Virus record (IMG/VR): IMGVR_UViG_3300035701_000001
Strand: one strand, 5' to 3'
Source of the DNA: a virus
DNA length: 64,000 nt
In this document: positions 9,509-23,054 of the stretch, one piece after another
Position numbering within the stretch: the stretch's first letter is position 1
Layout of the letters: every line of letters starts with the position of its first letter
Notes under the pieces: generated by a model
The model's input: only the letters and a program-made list of their open reading frames with translations
The model's database searches: none
What the model was told of the DNA's origin: nothing
Program-made: the position numbers and the translations under genes

Positions 9509-10417
9509 CTATCCGGACCATCCGGGTGGTGCGGGGCAGTTGCCCGCCGGAAACGGATCCGGGGCCTGGATTTCCTGGGACTTCGCCTGGTCGACCGGGA
9601 TGCCGAGCGCGGCCAACCGCTCCCTCGTCCCGTAGCGGAACACGAGTTCGAGGCAGGGGGCTTCCGTTGCGCGTTCGAAGGAAATGTCCCTTGTCCGAAG
9701 CTCGGCACGGGATCCGTATCCGGTCCCGAGGTCGACCTTGGAAGGATCGAGAGAACGGGTTGATTTCGTGGCGACACCCTCTGTGTGGACCGAGTTCACG
9801 ACGGCCGAGTCCAGGTGGTTGGAGAAGCTGGCATCAATGACTTGGGACTCGGAGTCATCACAGCATGCGGCTCCTCCGTGGGAGGATTCCCTGTTGGATC
9901 CGAGGGCTAAACACCGGGTGAAAGTGAGGTGGGGTTCGGGATATTCGAGGTAAGGAAAATCCCAGGGGTAGACCCTGCGACGATAGATTGGAATCTCCCG
10001 GATGACCGGGACCTCCACGATGCGGGGAACGAAGATCGGGTCCGGTACGCGGACCTTTTCGTCGAAGACCGCCACCGCGATGACCCCGGTGTTCCGCTTG
10101 CCATGTCCCATGGCCTGGCTGTAGGAGCCCTCGTTTTCGGTGAAGGTGAACCGAGCGACTTCCTGGTCGTTCCGCCGCCAGCCGGGGATGACCATCCGCT
10201 GCCAGGGGAAGAGGACATACCCGTTGCCGTCCCGGCTCGCGGGTTTGCCGTCGAGTACGGAGAGCCCGTCGACCGAGACGACGGCCAGGCGACGGTGGGG
10301 ACTGTTGTTCACGAGAACGATCTCGTAGTCGCCCGAGGGAGGAGCCAGCACCCAGTGCTGGGCCTCGTGGAAGAGTACGGGGAGGGGAACACCGTTCTGC
10401 TGGATCTGGACTTTCAT
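9509..10417 (-). CDS. conserved-looking hypothetical protein
   Basis: 302 aa; AVVSVDGLSVLDGK, IPGWR, NTGVIAVAVFDEK motifs typical of a widespread uncharacterised family (from memory). Confidence 0.75.
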   Translation of the reverse strand: MKVQIQQNGVPLPVLFHEAQHWVLAPPSGDYEIVLVNNSPHRRLAVVSVDGLSVLDGKPASRDGNGYVLFPWQRMVIPGWRRNDQEVARFTFTENEGSYSQAMGHGKRNTGVIAVAVFDEKVRVPDPIFVPRIVEVPVIREIPIYRRRVYPWDFPYLEYPEPHLTFTRCLALGSNRESSHGGAACCDDSESQVIDASFSNHLDSAVVNSVHTEGVATKSTRSLDPSKVDLGTGYGSRAELRTRDISFERATEAPCLELVFRYGTRERLAALGIPVDQAKSQEIQAPDPFPAGNCPAPPGWSG

Positions 10418-10746
10418 GGAATCACCTTGTCGGACGGGAAAGGGTTAGGGGAAAGGGAGATGTCTTCGGGAATGCAGCCCTCGCGCAATCCCCGGATCAA
10501 TTCTCGACAGGTCGTCTCCCAATCGAGGTCCTTGGACTCGAAGTGGTCGTAGAGGGAGGTGTCGAGGCGGAAGGAGAGCCGTTCGGAGAGGAATGGCTTC
10601 GTCTGGGCGTGGAGCTTTCCGTCTCGTACGGCATAGAGAAGCTCGTGCAGGACCCGAGTGGGGGTCGTCGAACGGGCCTTGGCATACGCAAACAGCCACT
10701 CCTTGTCGGAGGCGGTCACGTGAAGCTGGAGGGGCCGGGTGGGCAT
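10414..10746 (-). CDS. putative tandem ribbon-helix-helix regulator
   Basis: Two RHH-like segments (LQLHVTASDKEWLFAYAK..VLHELL; LSFRLDTSLYDHF..CRELI); leaderless start after promoter. Confidence 0.5.
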   Translation of the reverse strand: MPTRPLQLHVTASDKEWLFAYAKARSTTPTRVLHELLYAVRDGKLHAQTKPFLSERLSFRLDTSLYDHFESKDLDWETTCRELIRGLREGCIPEDISLSPNPFPSDKVIP

Positions 10747-10752
10747 GCAGGG

Positions 10753-10781
10753 AGTGTATGACGTGGTGTCATACGTGTCAA
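10753..10781 (-). promoter_or_regulatory. consensus sigma70 promoter
   Basis: TTGACA(10781)-N17-TACACT(10758). Confidence 0.7.
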
Positions 10782-10842
10782 GAGAAGAGTAGAAAAGTTT
10801 AGAAATCTGATATATAAACCAGGACAAAGCGAGGAACAGAGC

Positions 10843-11211
10843 ATGAAGAACGAGTCCGTGGGATCCAAGGATCTTTTTGAAATCGTAGATGTGGTGTTGC
10901 AGGATGGCGAAGTCCTCTCTGGGCTCGTCGATGGAAATGACAAAGTGGTAGCGGAAATCGCAATGACCAATGCCGAGGGGTGGGAAGTCGATCAGGCAGA
11001 GGTATTGACTGCCGAGTCCATGGGGTCTGATGAGATATTCTTCACTGCTTCGTTTCTTTTGATCGGTCAGCAGCGTGAAGATCGGATGGCGTGTGGTTCG
11101 AGGTTCAACGTCATGGCAGACGGCGTTGTGAAGCGGCTGGACGATTCATGGAAAATCGATCGGTTGAACGTGACGGATATTTCGTCCGATTTCGAAAACG
11201 AAGAAGTGTAG
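10843..11211 (+). CDS. acidic hypothetical protein
   Basis: 122 aa ORF with GAGG upstream. Confidence 0.65.
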   Translation: MKNESVGSKDLFEIVDVVLQDGEVLSGLVDGNDKVVAEIAMTNAEGWEVDQAEVLTAESMGSDEIFFTASFLLIGQQREDRMACGSRFNVMADGVVKRLDDSWKIDRLNVTDISSDFENEEV

Positions 11212-11220
11212 ATAAAAAAA

Positions 11221-11250
11221 CGGGGTCGACGCCGTGAAACGTCGACCCCG
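11221..11250 (-). terminator. intrinsic terminator
   Basis: CGGGGTCGACG/CGTCGACCCCG stem followed by T7 on minus strand. Confidence 0.7.
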
Positions 11251-11303
11251 CTGGGGCGAAACGGAAACCCCGTCCCGCCTCCACCACTCTCGCCTTGAGA
11301 GAT

Positions 11304-11918
11304 CTATAAATTTGCAATTGTTATTGGATCTATGATTTTCGCAGCAATAACTTTTCTCCGCACAACAGAAAAACCGTATTTTTTTGCTGTTAGTTCTTTT
11401 TCTTGATCCAACTTTTTCTGTGTTTCACAAAAATGATACGGGCCGTCAAATTCAACCAGGATTCTTACATCCAAGAGAGCCAAGTCGAAGACATATTCTT
11501 CAATTTTGTACTCAAGTTCAAATTTTCTATTGTTGTTAACAAGTACATCTCTTATGGCAGAGTATTTCCATTTTTCTCTTCTTTTCAATGTTTCTGACGC
11601 TGTAAGTAAATTTCCTTTTTGTAGAATTCCGCCAAGTCTTTGCGAGGATCTCCGTTCTTCAGACATGCTGGATGAACTAGCGCAAGAACGAGAACAATGT
11701 CTCTTGGCTTTGTTGTGTGTGGTCGTAATGAATGTTTTGCCACATCCTGGGCATACCATGATTATCTCTTTAGATTTTCTTGGTGCATTCATGGTCAATG
11801 CGGTACATGAAAGGCTGCAAAACATTTTTCTGCCAAGTCTTTTTGATCTGTTGAATTCGCTTGCAGATTTCAAGACTTTGGCCCCACAACCATCACACTG
11901 TATTTCAACTTTCTTCAA
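11304..11918 (-). CDS. free-standing putative homing endonuclease (Zn-finger repeats + DUF559/Vsr-like PD-(D/E)XK domain)
   Basis: CDGCG..FCSLSC and CPGCG..HCSRSC; YVFDLAL..ILVEFDGPYH; TTG start after GGAGG; AT-rich. Confidence 0.7.
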   Translation of the reverse strand: MKKVEIQCDGCGAKVLKSASEFNRSKRLGRKMFCSLSCTALTMNAPRKSKEIIMVCPGCGKTFITTTHNKAKRHCSRSCASSSSMSEERRSSQRLGGILQKGNLLTASETLKRREKWKYSAIRDVLVNNNRKFELEYKIEEYVFDLALLDVRILVEFDGPYHFCETQKKLDQEKELTAKKYGFSVVRRKVIAAKIIDPITIANL

Positions 11919-11935
11919 GTCAACCTCCACCGGAC

Positions 11936-11964
11936 ATTGTAGCAAAGTCCGATGGAGGTGACAA
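11936..11964 (-). promoter_or_regulatory. promoter for the endonuclease, immediately 3' of tmRNA
   Basis: TTGTCA(11964)-N17-TACAAT(11941). Confidence 0.65.
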
Positions 11965-11968
11965 GAGA

Positions 11969-12630
11969 TGGAGATGGCGGGAGTCGACACATTGTTGTCG
12001 CCGTGGCTTTTTATCCTCGGCTTCTGCCCGTTTTCTTCCGGACAGGTCGGCGTACGTTTTCCCCCTCGGGTTTCCTCGGTCGGGGGCTGGAGACTCTTGG
12101 GGGGATTCTTGCTGGCATCTGTGCTCACCCCCTACGCTCTACGAGGACCTCGTGCTCGCGAAGCCCTCTCGGCGTTCCCATCTCAGGGTTCACCGATATT
12201 CCCCAGTTCTCTTCCCTGAATTACGCCAGGGAACGGGCCTTCTCTCGACCCGCGTCCAGAACCAATCGACCTCAACGTCTACGCGCGTAGCGGGTTTGGC
12301 ATTCGGTTCCCCTTGGAGTTCCCACGTCCATCGAAGTTCCTACACGGCTGATCTCCCCCGAAGGAGAGAGAATCCGGTCGTCGTCCCCCGGAAACCCCGC
12401 CATTCCATCTCAGACACGCCCAGCCAGGTGGTGATGGAAGGTGAGTCTCGGACCTTCCTGGCCGGACGGGAGCGTCCCTTTCGGGACTAGGCAGCCAGAC
12501 GGGCCGCCTCTCCGAAGTGCTTGCTGTTGTTGGCAATTACTTTTGGTTTGCCCAGTGCTTTACGAGGTTCTGGACGACCTCGGCGCGCGGTCTTGGCCTT
12601 CCTCGGCCCTGTCGAAACCGGTGCATCCCC
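11969..12630 (-). ncRNA. ssrA: tmRNA, split: exon 1 12630-12248, exon 2 11987-11969
   Basis: 5' GGGGATGCACCGGTTTCGAC; tag reading frame ANNSKHFGEAARLAA* (stop 12487); spliced 3' end GGACGCGGGT|TCGACTCCCGCCATCTCCA; acceptor GGGGATG/CATCTCC. Confidence 0.93.
11988..12247 (-). mobile_element. group I intron (260 nt) in tmRNA T-loop
   Basis: U before 5' splice site pairs with G of IGS GCCCGU (P1), terminal G, P3 CUGGGGA/UCUCCAG, P7 GCGUA/UACGC, P8, P9 hairpins. Confidence 0.85.
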
Positions 12631-12721
12631 ATAGAGAAACGGGAGCCTTCGGGATGTCCCTTCGATCCAAGGAAAAAGCAGTAAGAGGCGGATCGGAAGG
12701 CTCCGGTCGATCAAAGAACGG

Positions 12722-12738
12722 TGACACAAGATGTGTCA
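12722..12738. promoter_or_regulatory. operator copy between tmRNA and secreted-protein gene
   Basis: TGACACAAGATGTGTCA identical to 1612-1628. Confidence 0.7.
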
Positions 12739-12818
12739 TGCAGAAGGTAGCGCAGGGGGAATTCCCCGTCAAGTCCCCGATGTCGCGTTCGTCGGTTAGG
12801 AGAAGACGAGGAGTCCCG

Positions 12819-13760
12819 ATGTTGGTCCCCCTGGCTCTCGCTGCGCTCGGCATGGCGGTCGCCTCTGCAGGAGAGGAGAGATCGCCTTCCGAACGAGTGC
12901 CATTTCCGGGGTTTGGACCGGAGGTACTTCTGCAGTTGATGCCGGGGTCCGCCTATTACGACATCGACAAGTGCTTCGGGCATCTGGATGGATGGTTCGT
13001 CCTGGCCTGGACGATTCCTACTTTGCTTTCGATGCGAAGTGCCGTGCGATCCCTGCTCAAGACCCCGCACATGGACATGGAGTGCCGGATCAGGTGTCCG
13101 GTTCCCATTGCCTGGTTTTTGCCGAAGGAGTCCCTGTCGGATCAGGCAAACAAGGTCCTGATGGAAATCCGGGGATATGACCTGGGCAGACACACCAAGG
13201 GTCATCCGGCTTACTTCAGGGATCGGGTTCTTCTTCTGAAGGAACTGGATGTCCTGCTCCGCCGGATCTTTGTCCCTTCGGAGCCAAACGAAGCCTTCGA
13301 GACTACATTTGGGATCGTTCAGACGGCGATAGGCCATACCCCTGTCCAAGTTCGGGAACTCGATGAGGTCAAGGAGGAGATCCGGGGGGCGTTGCTCAGT
13401 CGAGAAGAGTACGCCACTCGGATACTCAAGCCGTACTACGATTGGAGAACGCCGGACCCCAAAGAGCACAAGGAGATCCTTGTCGTCAAGTTGTGGGATT
13501 TCAAGCAGTCTTATATGAAAAAATTTCGGTATGGGGAACGCTGCGCGAATGTCAAGGTGCATTGGATCTATGAGGTAATCCAGGAACCCAAGGGGGATTT
13601 CTGGGCAGATGATTCCGTCGCCTCCTACGAGATCGACGACATGCTCGCAAGGCTCGGCTGGACTCCACCGCACCCGCGCAAGAAGAAGGACGGAGGAGAA
13701 GGAGAAGGAGGGGAAGAGGTTTCCGTAGACGATCTCATGAAATTGATTGGAAGTCATTGA
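12819..13760 (+). CDS. putative secreted hypothetical protein
   Basis: MLVPLALAALGMAVASA signal-like start, GAGGAG RBS; 313 aa. Confidence 0.75.
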   Translation: MLVPLALAALGMAVASAGEERSPSERVPFPGFGPEVLLQLMPGSAYYDIDKCFGHLDGWFVLAWTIPTLLSMRSAVRSLLKTPHMDMECRIRCPVPIAWFLPKESLSDQANKVLMEIRGYDLGRHTKGHPAYFRDRVLLLKELDVLLRRIFVPSEPNEAFETTFGIVQTAIGHTPVQVRELDEVKEEIRGALLSREEYATRILKPYYDWRTPDPKEHKEILVVKLWDFKQSYMKKFRYGERCANVKVHWIYEVIQEPKGDFWADDSVASYEIDDMLARLGWTPPHPRKKKDGGEGEGGEEVSVDDLMKLIGSH

Positions 13761-13795
13761 CAAAGCGTTGTTTTCGTTGATTCTTGTTTTTTTTG

Positions 13796-13824
13796 TTGCA
13801 CTTCTCGAAGCCCTTGGTTAGCCT
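13796..13824 (+). promoter_or_regulatory. promoter of tRNA block 1
   Basis: TTGCAC-N17-TAGCCT. Confidence 0.55.
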
Positions 13825-13830
13825 TTTTCC

Positions 13831-13923
13831 ATGACTCCCCGCAGTTCCATCACCTTCGCCACAAGCTTCCTGCTTCCGAGTTTGTCCTCGTGGCGGAAGT
13901 ACGTTCCGGAGGTGGGCCCGTAG
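13831..13923 (+). CDS. putative attenuator leader peptide 1 (MTPRSSITFATSFLLPSLSSWRKYVPEVGP)
   Basis: 30 codons between promoter and terminator; 3' end carries antiterminator arm. Confidence 0.55.
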   Translation: MTPRSSITFATSFLLPSLSSWRKYVPEVGP

Positions 13924-13950
13924 GGCTGGACTGCTTGTCTTCCCCCCCCT

Positions 13951-13995
13951 GAAGCCCCCTCCGGAACGAAAGCCCGGAGGGGGCTTCTGGTTTTT
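13951..13995 (+). terminator. attenuator/terminator hairpin upstream of tRNA block 1
   Basis: GAAGCCCCCTCCGG/CCGGAGGGGGCTTC 14-bp stem then TGGTTTTT. Confidence 0.75.
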
Positions 13996-14035
13996 CGGAT
14001 CCTTGAAATCGGGAATACGGATGGTTGTCCTGGAT

Positions 14036-14120
14036 GCGGATGTGGCGCAATCGGTAGATCGCGCGGGTCTCAAAAACCCGTGGGGGAAACCCCGTAGGAG
14101 TTCGAGTCTCCTCGTCCGCA
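14036..14120 (+). tRNA. trnL: tRNA-Leu(CAA)
   Basis: cloverleaf, CT-CAA-AA loop, long variable arm. Confidence 0.9.
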
Positions 14121-14124
14121 CTTT

Positions 14125-14202
14125 GGCTGGATAGCTGAGCGTGGGACAAGCGCCTGACTGAAGATCAGGAGTACGTCGGTTCAACTCCGACTCCAGCCAC
14201 CA
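14125..14202 (+). tRNA. trnF: tRNA-Phe(GAA)
   Basis: CCTGA-CTGAAGA-TCAGG; CCA encoded. Confidence 0.9.
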
Positions 14203-14203
14203 T

Positions 14204-14291
14204 GGGAGGAAGCCAGATGTTAAATAGCTGGGGCGGGCTGTAAACCCGTTGCCTTCGGGCTGGGAGCGTTCGAATCGCTCTTCTCCCACCA
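14204..14291 (+). tRNA. trnY: tRNA-Tyr(GTA)
   Basis: GCGGG-CTGTAAA-CCCGT; long variable arm; atypical D loop. Confidence 0.85.
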
Positions 14292-14300
14292 TTTTTCTGC

Positions 14301-14388
14301 GGAAGGTGAGGCCGGGCGTGGGCTGGTCGCTGGTTGGAAGCCAGATGGCATCTTCGGATGTGCGGTTCGATTCCGCCGCCTTCCGCCA
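14301..14388 (+). tRNA. trnS: tRNA-Ser(GGA)
   Basis: TT-GGA-AG loop, long variable arm, G73-CCA. Confidence 0.85.
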
Positions 14389-14395
14389 TTTTTTT

Positions 14396-14472
14396 GGGAT
14401 GTTAGCTCAGTAGAGTAGAGCCCCCGACTCTTAATCGGGCGGTCGTCGGTTCAAGCCCGACACATCCCACCA
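14396..14472 (+). tRNA. trnK: tRNA-Lys(CTT)
   Basis: CCCGA-CTCTTAA-TCGGG. Confidence 0.9.
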
Positions 14473-14478
14473 CTTTTT

Positions 14479-14561
14479 GCTCGGATGGTGGAACGCTAGA
14501 CACGCGGCGCTTAGAACGCCGTGGCCGAAAGGCTGTGCGGGTTGAATTCCCGCTCCGAGTA
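14479..14561 (+). tRNA. trnL: tRNA-Leu(TAG), C19:G56 variant
   Basis: CT-TAG-AA loop; D loop GC, T loop TTGAATT. Confidence 0.85.
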
Positions 14562-14568
14562 CTCTTTT

Positions 14569-14656
14569 GGGGGCGTGGTGGAATTTTGGTAGACACCATA
14601 GGCCGAGGACCTATGGGGGCGTAAGCCCCGTGCCGATTCGACTTCGGCCGTCCCCA
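14569..14656 (+). tRNA. trnL: tRNA-Leu(GAG)
   Basis: CATAGG-CCGAGGA-CCTATG. Confidence 0.85.
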
Positions 14657-14663
14657 CTCATTT

Positions 14664-14751
14664 GCACGCGTGATGGAAACCAGGAAGACATCCGAGGCTC
14701 AGAACCTCGGGAGACGAAAGTCTCGTGCCGGTTCGATCCCGGCCGCGTGCA
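14664..14751 (+). tRNA. trnL: tRNA-Leu(CAG)
   Basis: CCGAGG-CTCAGAA-CCTCGG. Confidence 0.9.
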
Positions 14752-14761
14752 CTCGTTTGTT

Positions 14762-14835
14762 AGGCACCGTGCGCTGGGACACACCCAGGATTCCAAATCC
14801 AGGGGGGCCCGGATCATCACCGGGGGTGCCTGCCA
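14762..14835 (+). tRNA. trnW: tRNA-Trp(CCA), atypical T loop
   Basis: AGGCACC/GGTGCCT-G-CCA; TT-CCA-AA loop; T loop ATCATCA. Confidence 0.7.
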
Positions 14836-14844
14836 TTTTTCCAA

Positions 14845-14928
14845 GGGATGAGGTCGGGTTCCTGTTTGGAACCTGCTAGAACAACGGAGGCGGGTGGTCG
14901 AATAGACCTGGGAATCCGACCTCATTCC
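14845..14928 (+). ncRNA. unidentified structured RNA in tRNA array
   Basis: 18-bp terminal stem GGGATGAGGTCGGGTTCC/GGAATCCGACCTCATTCC enclosing small hairpins. Confidence 0.45.
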
Positions 14929-14937
14929 TCTTCTTTT

Positions 14938-15018
14938 GCCCAGATGGCGAAAAGGCAGACGTAGAGGTCCTAAAAACCTTGTCCTTCGGGAGTGCGGGTT
15001 CGACTCCCGCTCTGGGCA
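14938..15018 (+). tRNA. trnL: tRNA-Leu(TAA)
   Basis: GAGGT-CCTAAAA-ACCTT. Confidence 0.85.
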
Positions 15019-15100
15019 CTTTTCGGAGTTCTCGGATAATACCTGTCGGACGGCCTGAAAAACCGATCGATGCCCGTGGGGGCGGGGACTCCGTTTCTTG

Positions 15101-15188
15101 GGAGGCGTGACCGAGTGCTCGATGGCACCAGTCTTGAAAACTGGAGGTTCGCAAGGACCCGTGGGTTGGAATCCCACCGCCTCCTCCA
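15101..15188 (+). tRNA. trnS: tRNA-Ser(TGA), C19:G56 variant
   Basis: CCAGT-CTTGAAA-ACTGG; D loop GAGTGCTCGA, T loop TTGGAAT. Confidence 0.85.
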
Positions 15189-15194
15189 TCTTGT

Positions 15195-15282
15195 GGAAAC
15201 GTGACCGAGAGGCCGATGGTCCCCGCCTGCTAAGCGGGGTGTGTTAACCCACACGCGGGTTCGAATCCCGCCGTTTCCGCCA
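15195..15282 (+). tRNA. trnS: tRNA-Ser(GCT)
   Basis: CCCGC-CTGCTAA-GCGGG. Confidence 0.9.
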
Positions 15283-15287
15283 TCTTT

Positions 15288-15375
15288 GGAGCAGTGGCCA
15301 AGAGCCTCATGGCCCCCGTCTCGAAAGCGGGTGGTGCGAAAGCACACGCGGGTTGAAATCCCGCCTGCTCCGCCA
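15288..15375 (+). tRNA. trnS: tRNA-Ser(CGA), C19:G56 variant
   Basis: CT-CGA-AA loop; D loop GAGCCTCA, T loop TTGAAAT. Confidence 0.85.
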
Positions 15376-15468
15376 GTTTGAGCGATTGTGACCGATCTTG
15401 TTGATGTTCCATTCGAGATAAACTAGGCTCTTTCCATCGGAAGTGTCGGGAAGATCGGGCAGTTACAA

Positions 15469-16326
15469 ATGGAGGATTTCACGGAATTGGTCGCAGAGAA
15501 AAAATCAGAGAGCCCTGGACAGAAGCTCATCACAGCAGGACGCCATTCCTGGGAAGAGATCGGGAAAGTCTGGGAAGTGATGGAGGAGGAGAATCAGGAG
15601 GCTGCTGTTCGGGAACTTCTTGGTCTCCTCAAGACGACAGAGGATCACGGGGTTCGTGACATCGCTGCGATGTTTTTCGGTGATTTGAAGGAACAGGATG
15701 CCGCTGTTATCCTGGCTGGACTTCTCACGGACCCTCGGACAAAGAACCATCGGGGTCGTCTCGTTGCTGCATTGGGAGACCTCGACTACCAGGAGTTCCT
15801 TCCTGTGATCGAGGGACTTGCGTCTCCGGATGAGAGTTTTGAGGTTCGGAGCATCGTCCAGTACCTGCTCCATCTTCCTTTGGTAAGCCCTCCAGTACAG
15901 GTCGAGGAAGTGGTGATGGCCCATGACCCTTTGAACGCGACCGAGGCCATCGCAATGGCCGTCCTGGCATTCCTTCCGAAGGCGGACGATGCCAGGTTGC
16001 GGGATACCATGGAGAGACATTTCTTCGAGCCCGCGCCGCGCAAGGTGATCGCCCGCCTGAACCCCCCAGAGGAACTACGGGAGGCCCTTGACCTCTGCGC
16101 AGAACTGGATGACGTGTGGGACCTCGGTACCGACGTGCAAAGGCAGAGTATTGAGGATATCCGCCGACTTCTTGTGGGCCTTATCGGGAAAGGCCCCTGC
16201 CACGAGATCACCCTTGACGATTGCGCGGTGTTCATCGAGGTCATCCGTCGCGAAGAAGAACACCATCCTCTCCCTGCCGAGGTCCAAGAACCGTTGCGGC
16301 GACGACTTGTCGGGGAGCCACGATGA
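15469..16326 (+). CDS. HEAT/PBS-lyase-repeat-like protein, possibly two domains
   Basis: VRDIAAMFFGDLKEQDAAVILAGLL, RGRLVAALGDL helical repeats; internal RBS+ATG near 15916. Confidence 0.65.
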   Translation: MEDFTELVAEKKSESPGQKLITAGRHSWEEIGKVWEVMEEENQEAAVRELLGLLKTTEDHGVRDIAAMFFGDLKEQDAAVILAGLLTDPRTKNHRGRLVAALGDLDYQEFLPVIEGLASPDESFEVRSIVQYLLHLPLVSPPVQVEEVVMAHDPLNATEAIAMAVLAFLPKADDARLRDTMERHFFEPAPRKVIARLNPPEELREALDLCAELDDVWDLGTDVQRQSIEDIRRLLVGLIGKGPCHEITLDDCAVFIEVIRREEEHHPLPAEVQEPLRRRLVGEPR

Positions 16327-16337
16327 CTTGCTGAATT

Positions 16338-16385
16338 CGGGTGGTGCGAAAGCACACGCAGGTCGAAATCCTGCCTGCTCCGCCA
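16338..16385 (+). repeat. direct repeat of tRNA-Ser(CGA) 3' half (att-like)
   Basis: 48 bp, 3 mismatches vs 15328-15375. Confidence 0.85.
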
Positions 16386-16400
16386 GATTCTAATTTTTTC

Positions 16401-16429
16401 TTGACGACCACCTTTGAACCAGGTACATC
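16401..16429 (+). promoter_or_regulatory. promoter of tRNA block 2
   Basis: TTGACG-N17-TACATC. Confidence 0.5.
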
Positions 16430-16457
16430 ATCCTTGTCTTACAGGAGTTCGTCTACC

Positions 16458-16583
16458 GTGTCTCCATTTGCCAAAACAAACGCCCAAACCGCAGCCATTC
16501 GGCCCGAAAGGTCCGGGTGCGTCGGTATGGTGCGCGAGCAGGCGAATCACCCGACGGTGAACCGGGGGCGCGGCATGCGGTAG
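16458..16583 (+). CDS. putative attenuator leader peptide 2 (MSPFAKTNAQTAAIRPERSGCVGMVREQANHPTVNRGRGMR)
   Basis: AGGAG RBS, GTG start, 41 codons, antiterminator arm at 3' end. Confidence 0.6.
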   Translation: MSPFAKTNAQTAAIRPERSGCVGMVREQANHPTVNRGRGMR

Positions 16584-16604
16584 ACGATTTTCACCTACCC
16601 GACC

Positions 16605-16650
16605 GAGGCCCCCGGCAGAGCAATCTTCCGGGGGCTTCGTCGTTTTCTGT
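16605..16650 (+). terminator. attenuator/terminator hairpin upstream of tRNA block 2
   Basis: GAGGCCCCCGG/CCGGGGGCTTC stem then T-rich tract. Confidence 0.7.
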
Positions 16651-16677
16651 TCTTTGATTTTTTGAACTTTTTGCTCC

Positions 16678-16753
16678 GGGGATGAAGCTGAATTGGAACA
16701 GCCCCGCGCTACGGACGCGGAGAATGCCCGTTCGATCCGGGTCATCCCCGCCA
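16678..16753 (+). tRNA. trnR: tRNA-Arg(ACG)
   Basis: CCGCG-CTACGGA-CGCGG. Confidence 0.9.
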
Positions 16754-16797
16754 TTTCGAAGCTCTTTTCCATCCTGAATACGAATGGTCTTGTACAC

Positions 16798-16886
16798 GAT
16801 GTTCCTGACCGGAGAGGGTCGAGTCCATCGGCGGACGCAGGGAAACCGTGCACGTCGGTGGGTGCTCCCCTCTTCGGCAGGACATC
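16798..16886 (+). ncRNA. unidentified rod-like RNA in tRNA array
   Basis: GATGTTCCTG..GGAGAGGG / CCCCTCTTC..CAGGACATC stem, inner stem capped by GAAA. Confidence 0.4.
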
Positions 16887-16891
16887 CCTTG

Positions 16892-16965
16892 GTTCCCGTA
16901 GCGCAGATGCACAGCGCGCCGCGCTCCGGACGCGGAGGTCACCGGTTGGAATCCGGTCGGGAACG
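16892..16965 (+). tRNA. trnR: tRNA-Arg(CCG), C19:G56 variant
   Basis: CCGCG-CTCCGGA-CGCGG; D loop AGATGCACA, T loop TTGGAAT. Confidence 0.85.
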
Positions 16966-16973
16966 CCTTCTAT

Positions 16974-17050
16974 GGTAAGCGAAGTTCTATTGGTTGAACG
17001 CCGGGTTGTGGCCTCGGAGGGTGCGGGTTCGATCCCCGTCGCTTACCCCA
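16974..17050 (+). tRNA. trnH: tRNA-His(GTG)
   Basis: G-1 and C73; TT-GTG-GC loop. Confidence 0.9.
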
Positions 17051-17158
17051 GTTCGGCAATGCGGACACGGTGTAAGCAGCCCCCGCGTTGCCGGGCTGTC
17101 CCAGCGGGACGTTTTTGAGGTCCTGTGAGTGCAGTCGCTTGCGACTGCCGGGACAGCC
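17051..17158 (+). ncRNA. unidentified structured RNA in tRNA array
   Basis: 14-bp hairpin 17051-17096 plus three-way junction GGCTGTCCC/GGGACAGCC. Confidence 0.4.
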
Positions 17159-17166
17159 TGGTTTTC

Positions 17167-17243
17167 GGGGTGGTAGTTGAGTCGGTCACAACACCGGCCT
17201 GTCACGTCGGAGTTCGCGGGTTCGAGCCCCGTCCATCCCGCCA
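17167..17243 (+). tRNA. trnD: tRNA-Asp(GTC)
   Basis: CCGGC-CTGTCAC-GTCGG. Confidence 0.9.
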
Positions 17244-17292
17244 TTTTGGAGGTCCACATGACCCGATTGAAACGTCGGTCGATCTACCCCGT

Positions 17293-17365
17293 GGGGCGGT
17301 AGGTCAACTGGCAGACAAACGGCCTTTTAAGCCGATAGTTCCGGGTTCGAGTCCCGGTCGCCCCA
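17293..17365 (+). tRNA. trnK: tRNA-Lys(TTT)
   Basis: CT-TTT-AA loop. Confidence 0.9.
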
Positions 17366-17373
17366 CTCCCTTT

Positions 17374-17450
17374 CCGAGCGTAGCGCAGCCTGGTAGCGCA
17401 CAAGCCTTGGGCGCTTGTGGTCAGAGGTTCAAATCCTCTCGCTCGGACCA
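17374..17450 (+). tRNA. trnP: tRNA-Pro(TGG)
   Basis: CAAGC-CTTGGGC-GCTTG. Confidence 0.9.
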
Positions 17451-17457
17451 TTTCTTT

Positions 17458-17571
17458 TCCGCCTCGCAGCGGAACCTGCCGTCGGGGGCGGGACCGGGTT
17501 TCCACGGGACAGCAACCTGTGAAACGCGGATAGGGAAACCCCGGTACACTCCTTTCCGATGGGCGAGGGAA
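17458..17571 (+). ncRNA. unidentified rod-like RNA in tRNA array
   Basis: Nested stems CCTCGC/GCGAGG, CCGTCGG/CCGATGG, ACCGGGTTTCC/GGAAACCCCGGT, CACGGG/CCTGTG. Confidence 0.4.
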
Positions 17572-17586
17572 GGAGCCCGATTCTTC

Positions 17587-17659
17587 GTTCCCATCGTCTA
17601 GTGGTCCAGGATGGCGGACTCTCGATCCGTCGACACCGGTTCGAATCCGGTTGGGAATG
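17587..17659 (+). tRNA. trnE: tRNA-Glu(CTC)
   Basis: GCGGA-CTCTCGA-TCCGT. Confidence 0.9.
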
Positions 17660-17670
17660 CCTTTTCAGAT

Positions 17671-17687
17671 GGACACACGATGTGTCC
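17671..17687. promoter_or_regulatory. operator copy
   Basis: GGACACA-CGA-TGTGTCC palindrome. Confidence 0.6.
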
Positions 17688-17748
17688 AATGGTACGTCTT
17701 CTCCGAGGTCAATCCATGAACTCCAGGTCTCGTTCAAAGCAGGAAGCG

Positions 17749-18207
17749 ATGGACAACCGATACCCTCTCTGGGTCGACTCCAGTGAACGGTTCAACCTGC
17801 GGGAGGTCGCCCCCAACCTTTACGTGGGCTCCCAGTGGTCGTTGGAGTGCAGGGATTGGCGGGCGGTCGTGGATCTCACGGGAAGCAGCCGCAGCGATCC
17901 CACTGCATATGGACGTTGCGACCGGCTCCTGCGCTGGACCCTGCATGACGGGGATCCCTTCCCGGAGGGATCCCTCACGGCCATCGAGGGATTCTGCCGG
18001 GACCGGAGTGGTCCGATCCTTCTGCACTGCGCGGCGGGTCTCTCCCGGTCCGCCTCCGCTGCCTACGGAATCCTGAGGACCCACCACCGGCTGCCTCCGA
18101 GGGAAGCCCTCCGCAGGATTCGGGTCCTGCCTCAGTTTCCCGTGAAGGAGACCTTGCTTTCTGTGGAACAGTGGGTCCGTCGCTGGAAATATCGGAATTC
18201 CAGGTAG
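17749..18207 (+). CDS. dual-specificity/tyrosine phosphatase family protein
   Basis: HCAAGLSRSA (CX5R) P-loop; LYVGS and DGDP motifs. Confidence 0.85.
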   Translation: MDNRYPLWVDSSERFNLREVAPNLYVGSQWSLECRDWRAVVDLTGSSRSDPTAYGRCDRLLRWTLHDGDPFPEGSLTAIEGFCRDRSGPILLHCAAGLSRSASAAYGILRTHHRLPPREALRRIRVLPQFPVKETLLSVEQWVRRWKYRNSR

Positions 18208-18279
18208 AGTGGAGACGGGAGATGGTCCTGTGACGTTCTTCCCTTCTGCGGATAGAAGAGAAGAAAGAGAAGATATTCC

Positions 18280-18768
18280 ATGCATTCCCTGGTCTGGCTC
18301 GGTGCACTCGTTCTCGGTGGCTCGGCTCTGGCCTCGCGCGAGTCGAAGCCATCGGGTCCTGAGCAAGATCCCCGTTTTCAGCCGGTGGGTCCAGGGAGAG
18401 ATCCCGAGACATTCGGGGGGCAGGAAGAAGCGGTCCGTCTGGCGGATGCACTCGTAGCCCTCTGTGATTACGCCGAGGAAAACTGGGAGGAACTCGGGAT
18501 TCACAGAGTCCGGGTTCCTGAGGACCAGGGGGGTACCCTGGAAGGGATCCTCATTGAGCACTCCGTGCATGGAGCCGAATTCGTGATCCTCTCCCAGGCA
18601 CTCGAACTGGCAGAGCAGTACGAGGTCCGAGCCGTCCACGTCCTCTCGGACAAGGGGATCTTCATCGGATTCACTCCGCTGTTCTCCACGTCGTTCGAGC
18701 CCATCGACCCCGCATTCGTTAACCAGGGATTGCTGTGGAGGTCATACGGCAATCCCCTGTGGAAATGA
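18280..18768 (+). CDS. membrane-anchored hypothetical protein (WLGA family 1)
   Basis: MHSLVWLGALVLGGSALAS N-terminus. Confidence 0.75.
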   Translation: MHSLVWLGALVLGGSALASRESKPSGPEQDPRFQPVGPGRDPETFGGQEEAVRLADALVALCDYAEENWEELGIHRVRVPEDQGGTLEGILIEHSVHGAEFVILSQALELAEQYEVRAVHVLSDKGIFIGFTPLFSTSFEPIDPAFVNQGLLWRSYGNPLWK

Positions 18769-18814
18769 CGGGGTAGGGATTTATGGATAGGAAAGGGGAA
18801 AGAGAGGACATTCC

Positions 18815-19513
18815 ATGGCACACAAGACCGACTTCACTCCCCTGTACTGGCTTGGCGCGGCGTTGGTCGGCGCGTGGGCATTGTCTTCTGGAGGTTCGAA
18901 GGAAGAAAGGAGACTGGAAGGTCACCGGGGAAGGGCACAGGAACCCTACAGGACTGAAGAGCCACCACGGGAACCCGTCTCGCAGATGCAGACGAGAATC
19001 CCCGGAGGATCGGAAAGGGTCGAATCCGAGGTCCAGAGGAGAAAACCTGTCTCTTCCACAATGGGTCCCCAGAGAGCCAGTGTGGAAGAACAGGCCAGAC
19101 AAGCGGCAAAGGAAATGATCCCTGCCCAGGGGGAGGTCCAGTCTGTGGATCCGGGGGATGAGACGACTCTGATCTACCGGTATCCATCGGAGGATTGGCT
19201 CGGGACGCCCACAAAGACCCCCTGGGGGATTGCACGGTCTGCCCAGATGTTTGGAATCACAGGGTACATCTTCCCCGATGCGGCGGGTCGATACCCGATG
19301 TACGCCGCACAGGTCGAAGAAGGGATTTTCTATCCCTACTACTTGGTCTCCAAAGGAAAAGTGATTCCTGCGAAGTCCACCTTTGAGATCCTGTCCCTCG
19401 ATCCCTCCAAGGCCGAAGGCAAGGTCTACCTTTTCTCTCCGGACAATCCGAAGGACGTTCCCGGAAGAAAAGCTGTTCTGCAGGGAGGTCGGGTGAAAAT
19501 GGAGCAGGAGTGA
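18815..19513 (+). CDS. membrane-anchored hypothetical protein (WLGA family 2)
   Basis: LYWLGAALVGAWALSS; TPWGIA, FPDAAGRYP. Confidence 0.75.
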   Translation: MAHKTDFTPLYWLGAALVGAWALSSGGSKEERRLEGHRGRAQEPYRTEEPPREPVSQMQTRIPGGSERVESEVQRRKPVSSTMGPQRASVEEQARQAAKEMIPAQGEVQSVDPGDETTLIYRYPSEDWLGTPTKTPWGIARSAQMFGITGYIFPDAAGRYPMYAAQVEEGIFYPYYLVSKGKVIPAKSTFEILSLDPSKAEGKVYLFSPDNPKDVPGRKAVLQGGRVKMEQE

Positions 19514-19576
19514 GCTTGTTCCAGGAATGACATTGGGATGTGCTGCGGATAAGAAGGGGAAAAGAGAGGTCGTGTC

Positions 19577-20671
19577 ATGAATTCCCTGTACTGGCTCGGC
19601 GCGGCATTGCTCGGGGGTTGGCTGGCCTCGGGCTACGGAGAGAAGACGGAGGCGACTCCCTCTCGTCCGGCTCCGATCCCTCCCCGTCGGAATGGGACCG
19701 GACATGGGGATCAAGGTCAGGAGAGATACCCCGAGGAACCGGTCCAGGAACGCGAAGGGGCCGAATCAGGTCTTTTCGAGCAGGAAGAGCAGTTCGGACG
19801 CAAAAAGCCACAGCCATCGAAACACGAAGTTCGTACCGGGACTCCTCCTGCCAAGCCCAAGAAGAAGCCCGCTGCCATTGCCCAGAGCGATGCACTCGGA
19901 CTTGACCTCAACCCCATCTCCCGCCTGGCAACTTTCTCGAATTGTGAGGCCGAGAAGGTGGCAGCGCAGGAAGCCATCCGTCCTTTCTCGGAGCCGGTCC
20001 CGAAGACGCCCAGGACATCCCTGGTTGCTCCCCCTCCTCCGCCCCTCGACTTCGACGAAGAACTGGATCTCCTCGAAGAGGGAATCGAGTCCGAATTCTT
20101 CGAGGGTGTTCCGGAAGGAAAAGGACCCGTTTCTGCCAAGGCAAAGAAGTCAGCCCGGATCGAAACCCAGAACCGGGCAGTCCAGCGTGGGAAAGAAAAC
20201 GTCATCTCGGAGTTTTCCCTCGAAGGATCCTCAGAAGGCCCCGAGGAAGACGAAGAGGAAGACTGGCTCGACTGGGCCGAGGCCGAGTTTTCAGAAGAGG
20301 CGATGACCCAGTGGCAGGAATTCGGCCGCAAGCCCAAGGGATCTATGGCGGGACCCGGCAGCGAGTTCGAGGATCTGGAGTCTGCCGACCCCTACGCGAA
20401 CCTCGGCAACATCTACAGCACACCTGCAGGACCCGTACGGCATCGTCAGATCGACACGCCGGACGGCCCCCGCAACCTCTACACGTTCCCCGATGCTCAG
20501 GGCCAGTACCCGACCGTCTTCGATACACCGGACGGTCCCCGCTACGTCTATCCGGGGACTCTGCCGGGACAGACCGTCGAGGCTGTGACGGAACGGCGGG
20601 GGGATTCGTACTTCCACATGTCTCCGCAGCGGCTTGTCGATCTGGATTCACTTGGGCTTTCGGTCGAATGA
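19577..20671 (+). CDS. membrane-anchored acidic hypothetical protein (WLGA family 3)
   Basis: MNSLYWLGAALLGGWLAS; FPDAQGQYP. Confidence 0.75.
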   Translation: MNSLYWLGAALLGGWLASGYGEKTEATPSRPAPIPPRRNGTGHGDQGQERYPEEPVQEREGAESGLFEQEEQFGRKKPQPSKHEVRTGTPPAKPKKKPAAIAQSDALGLDLNPISRLATFSNCEAEKVAAQEAIRPFSEPVPKTPRTSLVAPPPPPLDFDEELDLLEEGIESEFFEGVPEGKGPVSAKAKKSARIETQNRAVQRGKENVISEFSLEGSSEGPEEDEEEDWLDWAEAEFSEEAMTQWQEFGRKPKGSMAGPGSEFEDLESADPYANLGNIYSTPAGPVRHRQIDTPDGPRNLYTFPDAQGQYPTVFDTPDGPRYVYPGTLPGQTVEAVTERRGDSYFHMSPQRLVDLDSLGLSVE

Positions 20672-20746
20672 CCCCCTTGTTTTTTGCCACTTCTTCCTTC
20701 AACTCATCTTGTTCTTCGGGATATAGAAGAGCAGGAGGATGTCTTC

Positions 20747-21721
20747 ATGCACCCTGTGATCTGGATCGGCAGCCTCGTCCTCGGGGCCTGGGCTCTCTCG
20801 GGAACCTCGAAGAGAAAGGAACCTCCTGTCGCAGGTTCTCCCGAACCTTCTCGCTCCGTAGGGTTCCTGGGTCGTCCTCGCTATGGAGCTACGGAAATCC
20901 GGCAGGTTTCCCCAGATGAACTTGGGCTTCTTGTTGAAGTACCCTGGGGAATAGTAGCGAAAGCACGGCAACAAACGCTGAAAGATGGCTGGACTCACAC
21001 GTTTTTTCCTGACGCACGTGGAAAATTTCCCATCTGGGCAATCGGCCAGCACTACTACTACTTGCCTCCAGGCGACCCGTGGACAGATCAGTGGGCAATG
21101 TCCTCGACGTACGCCGATCCGTTCGATCCTCCGACAAGGAAGAGGATTTTCACCGTTCCTTCCAAAGATCCTCAGTACTTCGACCTGGTCGATAGAATGA
21201 CTGAAATCAATCTGGACGAAGCCTATGCAGGGCGGAAGTCACGTTCGGACCGTTTCGGGGCAGTGACGGAGGAGGACCGCCTGGCTGTAGCCATCCGGGA
21301 ATTCAGGCGCGCAGCCGAGGAGTTCAAACCGCACTATGACAGGGGGGACTCCGTCCTGAATGCGAAGACCTCGGACAGCAAGGGTAGGCCCCTTGTTGGC
21401 GTTCTCACCCCTGTGGGGGACTGGGAATACGGGAAACCCATCAACTACGGCGTGGACTATCTCCATGGAGAGGCCTGTCGCATCGCGGAGAAGTACCGGG
21501 TGAGGGCAGCGATGTCTCCGGTGGTGTCCGTTGGGGAGAACCAAGGGGTCGTCATCGGACTCACGTCGGCTTGGAACCCAGCATTCCAGACTCTCTTCCG
21601 TGGACAGAATCCAGAGCTTCAATGGGGGAGAGCCAGTCTGAAGGGACTCCAGTACCAGACAGGCATCTTGCCACGTCCTGGTTCGGGGGACTCGTACGGG
21701 AAGAAGGCCTCCGAGATCTAA
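20747..21721 (+). CDS. membrane-anchored hypothetical protein (WLGA family 4)
   Basis: MHPVIWIGSLVLGAWALSG; VPWGIV, FPDARGKFP; GGAGG RBS. Confidence 0.75.
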   Translation: MHPVIWIGSLVLGAWALSGTSKRKEPPVAGSPEPSRSVGFLGRPRYGATEIRQVSPDELGLLVEVPWGIVAKARQQTLKDGWTHTFFPDARGKFPIWAIGQHYYYLPPGDPWTDQWAMSSTYADPFDPPTRKRIFTVPSKDPQYFDLVDRMTEINLDEAYAGRKSRSDRFGAVTEEDRLAVAIREFRRAAEEFKPHYDRGDSVLNAKTSDSKGRPLVGVLTPVGDWEYGKPINYGVDYLHGEACRIAEKYRVRAAMSPVVSVGENQGVVIGLTSAWNPAFQTLFRGQNPELQWGRASLKGLQYQTGILPRPGSGDSYGKKASEI

Positions 21722-21794
21722 CGCAATCGAATAGCGCACCAGATTGGGGATCTGGTGAGTGATCGTTCCAATCAGGTGGTCCCGACTTGTTCAT

Positions 21795-21871
21795 GGGGTT
21801 GTAGCTCAGTTCGGGAGAGCGCGGCGTCCGCAACGCCGAGGCCGGGGGTTCGACTCCCCTCGACTCCACCA
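21795..21871 (+). tRNA. trnA: tRNA-Ala(CGC)
   Basis: CGGCG-TCCGCAA-CGCCG; G3:U70. Confidence 0.9.
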
Positions 21872-21876
21872 TTCAT

Positions 21877-21949
21877 GGGCCTGTAGTTCATCTGGGAGAA
21901 CACCTCGGTGGCATCGAGGAGGCAGTCGGTTCGAGTCCGATCAGGTCCA
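21877..21949 (+). tRNA. trnA: tRNA-Ala(GGC)
   Basis: CCTCG-GTGGCAT-CGAGG. Confidence 0.85.
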
Positions 21950-21958
21950 CTATTTCAC

Positions 21959-22035
21959 GGGGTTGTAGCTCAATGGTTTAGAGCAATCGGCCGTTAACCG
22001 ATAGGCTGTCCGTTCGAGTCGGACCTTCCCCGCCA
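21959..22035 (+). tRNA. trnN: tRNA-Asn(GTT), two U-U mismatches in acceptor
   Basis: ATCGG-CCGTTAA-CCGAT. Confidence 0.8.
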
Positions 22036-22040
22036 TCTTT

Positions 22041-22128
22041 GGGACGGTAGCTCAGTTGGGTAGAGCGCGGTTCTGATAAGACCGAGGCCGAGAGGATTTC
22101 GTGGGTTCGAGCCCCGCCCGTCCCACCA
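22041..22128 (+). tRNA. trnI: tRNA-Ile(GAT), enlarged variable region
   Basis: CGGTT-CTGATAA-GACCG. Confidence 0.85.
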
Positions 22129-22129
22129 T

Positions 22130-22206
22130 TGTCCCCTAGTTCAATTGGCAGAACGCTCGGCTCTGGACCGAGAGGTTTCAAGGTTCGAACCCTTGGGGGA
22201 CAACCA
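22130..22206 (+). tRNA. trnQ: tRNA-Gln(CTG)
   Basis: CTCGG-CTCTGGA-CCGAG. Confidence 0.9.
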
Positions 22207-22212
22207 TCTCGT

Positions 22213-22285
22213 GTCGGTGTAGCCCAAAGGCTGGGCACGACGCTGCAAACGTCGAAGAATGCCGGTTCGAATCCGGCCGCCGACT
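22213..22285 (+). tRNA. trnC: tRNA-Cys(GCA)
   Basis: CGACG-CTGCAAA-CGTCG; U73. Confidence 0.85.
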
Positions 22286-22292
22286 CCCTCTT

Positions 22293-22368
22293 CGGGGTGT
22301 AGCTCAGTTGGAGGAGCGCCTGGTTCGGGACCAGGAGGTTTTCGCCGGTTCGAGCCCGGCCACCCCGA
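22293..22368 (+). tRNA. trnP: tRNA-Pro(CGG)
   Basis: CCTGG-TTCGGGA-CCAGG. Confidence 0.9.
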
Positions 22369-22454
22369 CTCCTTCGTGTTACAACAAGGATACCGGCAGG
22401 CCGTGAGCCGGGACAACCGCACGGTACCTTCACCTCGATGTCAGGGAGAACGAC

Positions 22455-22883
22455 ATGAGACAGGTGCGTGCGAAGTTCCGGTGCATGGAGATCAGCCGTT
22501 TCTGGAACGGGGGGTGTACGCTCGTACGTTTTTTGCCTGTCATGGCAAAGAATGGATGCCGTGCGGACGAAGAGACCGCCAGCGAGGAGAACGCAGCCTT
22601 CTGGCAGGCAACCCCTTCCGGAGAAGCCAAGCTCCAGTTCCCCACGCTCGACCCCGTGTCCTACGAGATCGGGCACTGCTACTACCTCGACATGCGTCCA
22701 GACGAACAGGGGAGTTGGAAGCTCACCGAGCGCAAGCACAGTGAAGGCCAACTCGGGGTTGTCCTGTCCTGCTCCTGGCGGGACTCGGTCAGCATGAACA
22801 TCTGCAACGAGTCAGCCTGGGATGCCTTCGACGGTCCCATCGGGGGACCCTGGTCTGTCGAGTTCACGCACGCGGGGCCGTAG
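22455..22883 (+). CDS. hypothetical protein inside tRNA array
   Basis: 142 aa, GGAGA RBS, VRAKFRC and ENAAFWQATPSG motifs. Confidence 0.75.
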   Translation: MRQVRAKFRCMEISRFWNGGCTLVRFLPVMAKNGCRADEETASEENAAFWQATPSGEAKLQFPTLDPVSYEIGHCYYLDMRPDEQGSWKLTERKHSEGQLGVVLSCSWRDSVSMNICNESAWDAFDGPIGGPWSVEFTHAGP

Positions 22884-22898
22884 CGCTCCTTCTTTTGC

Positions 22899-22969
22899 CG
22901 GGGCGTTGGCAAGCGGCAAGCCACCAGGCTTTGGTCCTGGCATCGCAGGTTCGAATCCTGTCGCCCCCA
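22899..22969 (+). tRNA. trnQ: tRNA-Gln(TTG)
   Basis: CCAGG-CTTTGGT-CCTGG. Confidence 0.85.
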
Positions 22970-22977
22970 CCTTCGAA

Positions 22978-23054
22978 GGCAGCGTACCTCAGTTGGCCAG
23001 AGGAGGGCGCTCATATCGCCACGGTCGCCGGTTCGAGTCCGGCCGCTGCCACCA
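22978..23054 (+). tRNA. tRNA-Met/Ile2(CAT)
   Basis: CT-CAT-AT loop; identity Met vs Ile2 not resolved. Confidence 0.8.

Follow-up and report, generated by a model that had tools for sequence, protein, structure and literature searches.

Phage tRNA genes are usually viewed as simply coexpressed with early or late genes, and to our knowledge the regulation of its own tRNA genes by a phage is largely unknown. A short ORF followed by a hairpin, immediately ahead of a large tRNA array, raises the question of whether the tRNA genes behind it are under attenuation control. The 64-kb stretch of viral DNA analyzed here (the window) is phage-like, with HNH endonuclease genes among the tRNA genes and a tmRNA gene. 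ARAGORN called 41 tRNA genes by default, and a lower threshold added three that the default search had missed, all in block 1: a Tyr-like class II tRNA with GTA in the anticodon loop (14204-14291), Ser(GGA) (14301-14388), and Trp(CCA) (14762-14835). Block 1 (14036-15375) comprises 13 tRNAs for Leu, Ser, Phe, Tyr, Trp, and Lys(CTT). The downstream blocks (16678-24917) comprise 30 tRNAs with 28 anticodon species. They begin with block 2 (16678-17661, plus strand; Arg ACG, Arg CCG, His, Asp, Lys TTT, Pro TGG, and Glu CTC) and continue with further blocks at 21712-24917 (plus strand), which hold 23 tRNAs with anticodons that are also represented in the short ORF. By simple wobble, block 1 accounts for 18 sense codons and the downstream blocks for 43, and the two sets together cover 60 of 61. 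An earlier note, made from the letters of the DNA, had interpreted the region at 16401-16650 as the second of two attenuators, with a leader peptide complementary in codon content to that of the first. The two elements are called leader 1 and leader 2 below.

Anatomy and folding of leader 2

The ORF of leader 2 (protein P0005; 16458-16583, plus strand) has a GTG start, 41 sense codons, and a TAG stop, and it was annotated as a 41-aa gene in an independent assembly too. A Shine-Dalgarno box, AGGAG, was read directly at 16443-16447 on the plus strand, 10 nt before the GTG. Both the AGGAG site and the 41-codon ORF of the earlier note are thus present, and a short ORF with a translation start occupies 16443-16583 of the 5' leader. 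The note had also named a promoter. Its candidate −35 box, TTGACG (16401-16406, plus strand), is convincing and is kept in one relative, whereas the −10 candidate, TACATC, located 17 nt 3' of it, is weak. On the plus strand between 12.5 and 26 kb, the pattern TTGACN-17-TAnnn was matched by this site and by one other at 25563, beyond the last tRNA gene.

From the end of the upstream gene at 16326, a tRNA-Ser fragment, TTGACG, the leader 2 ORF, and the hairpin follow in this order. The hairpin is therefore separated from the upstream gene by a candidate promoter and an ORF, unlike an ordinary terminator, which follows its gene with neither between. In this G+C-rich stretch nearly all six frames are open, so that openness of the frame carries no weight. 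An 80-aa ORF at 16341-16583 was considered and rejected as a real gene; its start lies inside the tRNA-Ser fragment, which is absent from the relative. The fragment itself (16333-16389, just 5' of the leader 2 promoter) copies the 3' half of tRNA-Ser(CGA) (15323-15379) at 89% identity. Because of this copy, the HEAT-repeat gene at 15469-16326 sits between two tRNA-Ser(CGA) 3' halves. By sequence the arrangement looks like an insertion footprint in the tRNA array, with block 1 once abutting leader 2. A single relative of the HEAT-repeat protein was found, 54% identical and located on a 902-bp contig.

The leader 2 region folds far better than its shuffles (z −3.9). Folding of the growing transcript yielded four segments that form the mutually exclusive helices 1:2, 2:3, and 3:4. 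Segment 1 (16449-16465, plus strand) consists of the Shine-Dalgarno spacer, the GTG, and codons 2-3, and pairs with 16564-16587 in the minimum-energy fold, so that the start codon is sequestered in helix 1:2. Segment 2 (16564-16587, plus strand), which carries the last codons and the TAG, is the partner of either segment 1 or segment 3. Folding also placed inner hairpins within the ORF at 16466-16547 and 16547-16560 (plus strand), which are mostly invariant in the relative; that they act as an RNA polymerase pause hairpin would be a guess. The antiterminator hairpin 2:3 (16562-16615, plus strand) spans 54 nt with helices of 8, 3, and 5 bp, and its 5' strand is formed by the last seven codons and the stop codon of the ORF. 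The intrinsic terminator 3:4 (16600-16658, plus strand) has an 11-bp G+C-rich stem (16605-16615 with 16628-16638) and four outer pairs (16600-16603 with 16639-16642), followed by a T-rich run that is interrupted and is weaker still in the relative. A predicted stem of 11 + 4 bp (16600-16642) thus stands between the leader ORF and the first gene that it would regulate. This gene, tRNA-Arg(ACG), starts at 16678, 35 nt after the terminator stem. Because the gap leaves no room for a promoter, block 2 appears to be reachable only through the terminator.

As the earlier note had claimed, CCGGGGGC in the last codons (16562-16569) is perfectly complementary to GCCCCCGG in the 5' arm of the terminator (16608-16615). 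The second copy of CCGGGGGC, placed at 16627 in that note, lies at 16628-16635 and constitutes the 3' arm of the terminator; in the 64 kb the motif occurs three times. A perfect 8-nt complement of the terminator arm within the last 45 nt before the terminator had a p value of 0.012, and a start/stop complement of at least 10 nt in leader 2 a p value of 0.0016. The energy of the antiterminator was −31.1 kcal/mol compared with −21.2 ± 2.8 kcal/mol in shuffles (p = 0.006).

The balance between the helices shifted with the length of the transcript. For a transcript ending at 16616, folding favored the 2:3 state (−75.8 kcal/mol) over the 1:2 state (−68.9 kcal/mol) by 6.9 kcal/mol. With the end at 16650, the terminator state (−98.8 kcal/mol) was better than the 2:3 state (−84.0 kcal/mol) by 14.8 kcal/mol. 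In the leader of the relative, the 2:3 state had −75.2 versus −69.0 kcal/mol for 1:2 before segment 4, and the terminator −97.5 versus −87.2 kcal/mol for 2:3 after it. When ribosome footprints were masked on leader 2, helix 2:3 stayed intact with A-site codons 2-32 and was abolished from codon 34 to the stop. A ribosome halted at the TAG covers about 16563-16595, which corresponds to segment 2. The predicted antiterminator and terminator are mutually exclusive, and a ribosome that has reached the last codons would cover the 5' strand of the antiterminator. The leader ORF, antiterminator, and terminator described in the earlier note were borne out computationally, and the complete 1:2 / 2:3 / 3:4 switch is fuller than had been noted.

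Codon content of the two leaders

The amino acid composition given in the earlier note was right for six Arg, five Ala, and four Gly codons and for the lack of Leu, Tyr, and Trp. It omitted two Ser codons and one Phe codon (TCT, TCC, and TTT), which are served by block 1 tRNAs, and it passed over the missing Asp codon, which is absent although tRNA-Asp is encoded downstream. Its list of downstream tRNAs, including Lys(TTT), agreed with the ARAGORN calls. Downstream tRNAs read 37 of the 40 codons that follow the start. When wobble is allowed, the ORF touches every downstream anticodon species except Asp (27 of 28), and 22 of the 28 are matched exactly. The codons of the leader therefore match what the genes behind it supply, in the form of a roster rather than a run. 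For Ala, Thr, and Pro, three isoacceptors each are encoded downstream, and each isoacceptor is matched by its exact complementary codon in leader 2.

The wobble coverage was compared with several null models, using a statistic that had been chosen after the leader 2 ORF had been seen. Stop-free 40-codon windows from all six frames of the 64-kb window had a mean of 18.2 ± 2.4 (p = 1.6e-4), and iid draws from the codon usage a mean of 19.0 (p = 1.5e-4). For 40-codon windows of 65 long ORFs the mean was 18.3, and 0 of 2801 were as high. Dinucleotide shuffles of the leader 2 ORF yielded a mean of 20.5 (p = 2e-4, and 1.6e-3 for exact coverage). The other five frames of the same stretch had wobble coverages of 16-21. 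Avoidance of block 1 codons was not significant when the local dinucleotide composition was kept (p = 0.11). The unusual feature of leader 2 is the evenness of its coverage, rather than avoidance of block 1 codons.

A twin element, attenuator 1 (13831-13999, plus strand), consists of a 30-codon ORF (13831-13923) and a terminator (13951-13987) and precedes the 13 tRNAs of block 1. Its three helices are laid out in the same 1:2 / 2:3 / 3:4 order, with an energy flip as in leader 2: the 2:3 state had −59.6 versus −51.1 kcal/mol for 1:2 before segment 4, and the terminator −83.1 versus −73.6 kcal/mol for 2:3 after it. Leader 1 is without a Shine-Dalgarno box. It covers all 13 block 1 anticodons (p = 1e-4 against six-frame windows, 6.5e-4 against shuffles). 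It touches 15 of the 28 downstream anticodons, and leader 2 touches 2 of the 13 block 1 anticodons. Block 1 tRNAs read 14 of the 29 codons of leader 1 and 3 of the 40 codons of leader 2 (Fisher p = 1.5e-4), and the claim that the same design occurs twice with reciprocal codon content was upheld. The split extends to Lys, for which leader 2 uses AAA (tRNA TTT, downstream) and leader 1 AAG (tRNA CTT, block 1). For the 314-aa protein 5' of leader 1, no relatives were found.

A relative from a metagenome

A search with the P0005 peptide against a library of 1.8 billion representatives returned one homologue, P0006, of 43 aa and 74% identity. A profile search with the leader peptide detected nothing beyond P0005 and P0006. 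P0006 is encoded on a 17.7-kb Logan contig (L001/L002) from a metagenome, where it is annotated as a 43-aa gene. The window phage and this relative occur in the samples ERZ27248148, SRR11719878, SRR9617952, and SRR22387926. The tRNAs after this leader follow the same order as in the window (Arg, Arg, His, Asp, Lys, Pro, Glu, Ala, Ala, Asn, etc.) and number 30 in all. From the Shine-Dalgarno box to the terminator, the two leaders are 83% identical, compared with a mean of 73% (57-100%) over 28 tRNA pairs. The spacers on either side of the leader are not alignable, and the upstream proteins are unrelated.

The signals of the leader are largely retained. TTGACG is identical in the relative (L001 894-899), with adjoining bases diverged, and lies 17 nt before a hexamer starting with TA. 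An SD-like GAGG is found at the spacing of AGGAG, and the GTG and TAG are kept at equal places relative to the helices. No change affects the 16 pairs of helix 2:3 or the 11 pairs of the 3:4 stem. Two registers of helix 1:2 behaved differently: the one pairing 16456-16465 with 16564-16573 keeps 10 of 10 pairs, two of them changed from G-U to Watson-Crick, whereas the 11-bp register pairing 16449-16459 with 16577-16587 is not kept (8 of 11 pairs). These counts of conserved pairs come from one relative and include no two-sided covariation.

Between the two ORFs there are 17 substitutions, distributed 5/6/6 over the codon positions, and two indels, each of 3 nt. Four of the codon changes are synonymous and 10 are nonsynonymous. 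The leader peptide is thus not conserved as a protein at the level of sequence, whereas frame, start, and stop are conserved. The even substitution pattern fits a leader peptide whose sequence is irrelevant, and it fits a non-coding RNA equally well.

Codon coverage was retained despite the divergence. The earlier note had proposed a statistical comparison of leader codons with downstream anticodons in homologs; this gave 27/28 for leader 2 (p about 2e-4) and 28/28 for the relative (p = 2e-4), the other frames of which cover 15-22. The CAA and GAG codons each disappeared from one position and returned elsewhere in the ORF, and the relative gained an Asp codon. Simulated drift of equal size from the window leader led to 23.8 ± 1.7 anticodons, and 28 were reached in 0.6% of the runs. 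Retention of exact-codon coverage was not significant (p = 0.19).

Other searches were performed with the leader and its surroundings. A cmscan of 8000-27000 against Rfam at E values up to 1 found nothing within 16387-16677, and the T-box (RF00230) and the other Rfam leaders (His, Leu, Thr, Trp, and others) were rejected as candidates, with no covariance-model match at E up to 1. Scans of IMG/VR with two proteins and three DNA patterns returned nothing save one unrelated coding match (L016). A metagenome scan with a conserved 19-mer of the leader hit 13 loci, all of them unrelated coding sequences. Among GenBank phages, blastn of the leader gave chance matches only, and the 2.3-kb region matched only single tRNAs. 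In Xanthomonas phage XacN1, a possible cultured model, the tRNAs are scattered among many small ORFs. A full-text search of the literature found no account of leader-peptide control of tRNA genes.

Proposed mechanism, alternatives, and reach of control

We consider it reasonably probable that leader 2 is a ribosome-mediated transcription attenuator, which would gate read-through from a promoter near 16.40 kb into the tRNA genes from 16678. This reading, built on sequence and folding models, starts from the anatomy, energetics, statistics, and conservation of the element, from which we infer that the ORF would be translated, that termination and switching would take place, and that control may reach beyond block 2. 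The polymerase would transcribe the 41-codon ORF while the first ribosome loads at AGGAG/GTG. If all 41 codons were decoded fast, the ribosome would be at the TAG on segment 2 when segments 3 and 4 emerge. With segment 2 covered, the terminator would form and transcription would end 35 nt before tRNA-Arg. A ribosome delayed at any codon would leave segment 2 free to pair with segment 3 as the antiterminator 16562-16615, which would remain the more stable structure until segment 4 exists, and the polymerase would run on into the tRNA genes. Judging from the energetics, the antiterminator would form whenever no ribosome covers segment 2 as segment 3 appears.

In such a device a delay at any codon would count, which would give the codon roster its purpose. 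The leader 2 ORF would act as a summed test of decoding speed for 27 of the 28 downstream anticodon species, and leader 1 as a like test for the Leu, Ser, Phe, Tyr, Trp, and Lys(CTT) block. Helix 1:2 would later hide the start codon and so limit the test to the first ribosome. Slow decoding caused by too little, uncharged, or cleaved tRNA would trigger leader 2 in the same way, and the phage probably makes its downstream tRNAs when decoding is slow. As a wider and tentative proposal, large phages may carry decoding-speed sensors in which two reciprocal leaders split the sense codons (18/43), each switching on its own tRNA set. The tRNA pool would thereby be placed in a closed feedback loop that could answer depletion or cleavage of host tRNAs (e.g. 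by anticodon nucleases) or the destruction of host tRNAs by the phage itself, and such sensors might be common in tRNA-rich phages.

Other accounts of the element have to be weighed against this one. It could be an RNA switch independent of translation, or a structured non-coding RNA, with a protein, a small RNA, a tRNA, or a metabolite as ligand and the frame incidental. The excess folding stability of the region (z −3.9) would be expected of such an RNA, and so would the even spread of substitutions over the codon positions, with the peptide altered at 10 of 14 changed codons. Burial of the start codon in helix 1:2 and the high conservation of the inner hairpin also fit, and most frames are open anyway. 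We nevertheless regard this account as unlikely. Coverage is specific to one frame in both phages and improbable under shuffles that keep the composition, and the roster codons relocate instead of vanishing. Moreover, the Shine-Dalgarno box, GTG, and TAG are kept at fixed places relative to the helices, the TAG is sited such that a terminating ribosome covers segment 2, and no Rfam family, T-box included, matched at E up to 1.

If leader 2 were an ordinary small protein gene with a leaky terminator, the tRNAs would be expressed by constitutive read-through and the alternative pairings would be non-regulatory. Annotation as 41-aa and 43-aa genes in independent assemblies would follow naturally, as would the Shine-Dalgarno box and the terminator. 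This is improbable in view of the lack of any sign of selection on the peptide and its single homologue among 1.8 billion representatives; in addition, the antiterminator overlaps the end of the ORF and is fully conserved, the energy flips as in attenuators in three independent or diverged copies, and the design recurs before block 1 with the complementary codon set. Chance would require no more than a G+C-rich spacer with an open frame beside the terminator of the upstream gene, and open frames are indeed common at this composition and the statistics were chosen after the fact. We hold it to be very improbable, since several separate features had p values between 0.012 and 2e-4, the element is more conserved than the neighboring tRNAs while its flanks are not conserved, and the upstream gene is separated from the ORF by a conserved −35 box.

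The attenuator reading places leader 2 in a known class. Leader-peptide attenuators of enterobacteria include the multivalent leaders of ilvGMEDA, ilvBN, and thr, as well as trpL, hisL, leuL, and pheL. Leader 2 resembles the ilv/thr type in its short 5' leader ORF, its 1:2, 2:3, and 3:4 segments, and its intrinsic terminator; a ribosome at the stop codon would likewise mask segment 2, and slow decoding would favor the antiterminator. It differs in preceding tRNA genes rather than genes for biosynthetic enzymes, and in carrying about one codon for each of ~27 anticodon species throughout the ORF, where the ilv/thr-type leaders have runs for one to three amino acids. It also differs in that 2:3 is more stable than 1:2, because of which leader 2 without translation may, according to the folding model, give read-through rather than superattenuation. 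In E. coli, a leader-peptide attenuator (the pheM leader of pheST) controls a component of the decoding machinery, not a biosynthetic pathway. That system is bacterial, acts on a synthetase gene, and uses Phe codons only, whereas leader 2 is viral. T-box riboswitches share with leader 2 a terminator/antiterminator switch with the state of tRNA as input, but they act without a ribosome, recognizing a single uncharged tRNA by direct contact with a specifier codon and the T-box bulge, and they control synthetase or amino acid genes.

In antibiotic-sensing attenuators (e.g. vmlR; erm or cat type), stalling on a leader ORF refolds the RNA and activates a gene that brings relief from the block in translation (PMC9226507, PMC6851288). 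Stalling on a short leader ORF that changes the RNA fold is also what is proposed for leader 2. In these systems, unlike in leader 2, a drug-bound ribosome stalls at a defined peptide motif, and they are not known to have a codon roster or downstream tRNA genes. The class of mechanism (leader-peptide attenuation of the ilv/thr/his/trp type) is textbook knowledge, and its application to tRNA genes and the codon roster would be new. If the reading is true, no attenuator of tRNA genes would have been known before leader 2, nor any with the summed decoding time of ~27 anticodon species as input, where known attenuators respond to the supply of one to three amino acids. The near-complete tRNA sets of tRNA-rich phages could then be on-demand replacements for use when the host pool fails. 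The element is compact, at ~200 nt, and could be reused as a decoding-speed sensor.

How far control would extend beyond block 2 is a separate matter. The leader roster covers the distal tRNAs in both the window phage and the relative, yet it is doubtful that the 30 downstream tRNAs are controlled together on a single transcript, which in the window would span 16.4-25.5 kb. In the window, five codirectional protein genes lie between block 2 and block 3. In the relative, a single transcript for all rostered tRNAs is hard to envisage because real opposite-strand genes (DUF2201 and AAA_5) are part of its array. Promoter-like sites were found in spacers at 23232 and 23658, a number no greater than expected by chance. 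No further roster-like leader ORF was seen inside the array, and the gap at 22370-22898, considered as a further leader, is occupied by an ordinary 142-aa gene instead. The AT-rich spacer from tRNA-Gly(GCC) to tRNA-Thr(TGT) (23221-23339) contains a promoter-like TCTACA-18-AATAAT and a perfect 10-bp hairpin and is, by its sequence, a candidate internal promoter for the distal tRNAs.

Inside block 2, a hairpin with T5 was found at 17097-17116. The surrounding tRNA-His/tRNA-Asp spacer (17051-17166) has several alternative helices, and within it GGCTGTCCC can pair either nearby or with GGGACAGCC 50 nt further on; the spacer may hold a second stop or switch.

Several irregularities were observed among the tRNA genes themselves. 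A fragment resembling the 5' half of a tRNA (23886-23930) stands directly before an HNH endonuclease gene (23953-24444), after which comes tRNA-Ala(TGC); from its sequence the fragment may be another insertion footprint. The tRNA-Ile(GAT) of the window is unusually long (88 nt). In the relative, tRNA-Ile is split, with its ends (L001 3184-3194 and 3981-4005) about 790 nt apart and an opposite-strand ORF between them, representing either an intron or a disrupting insertion. In block 1, a long closed hairpin or tRNA-like element at 14845-14930 had no tRNA or Rfam match. Outside the array, the gene at 8745-8818 on the plus strand encodes a tRNA whose UCA anticodon would read UGA; both leader ORFs would be unaffected by it because both end in TAG.
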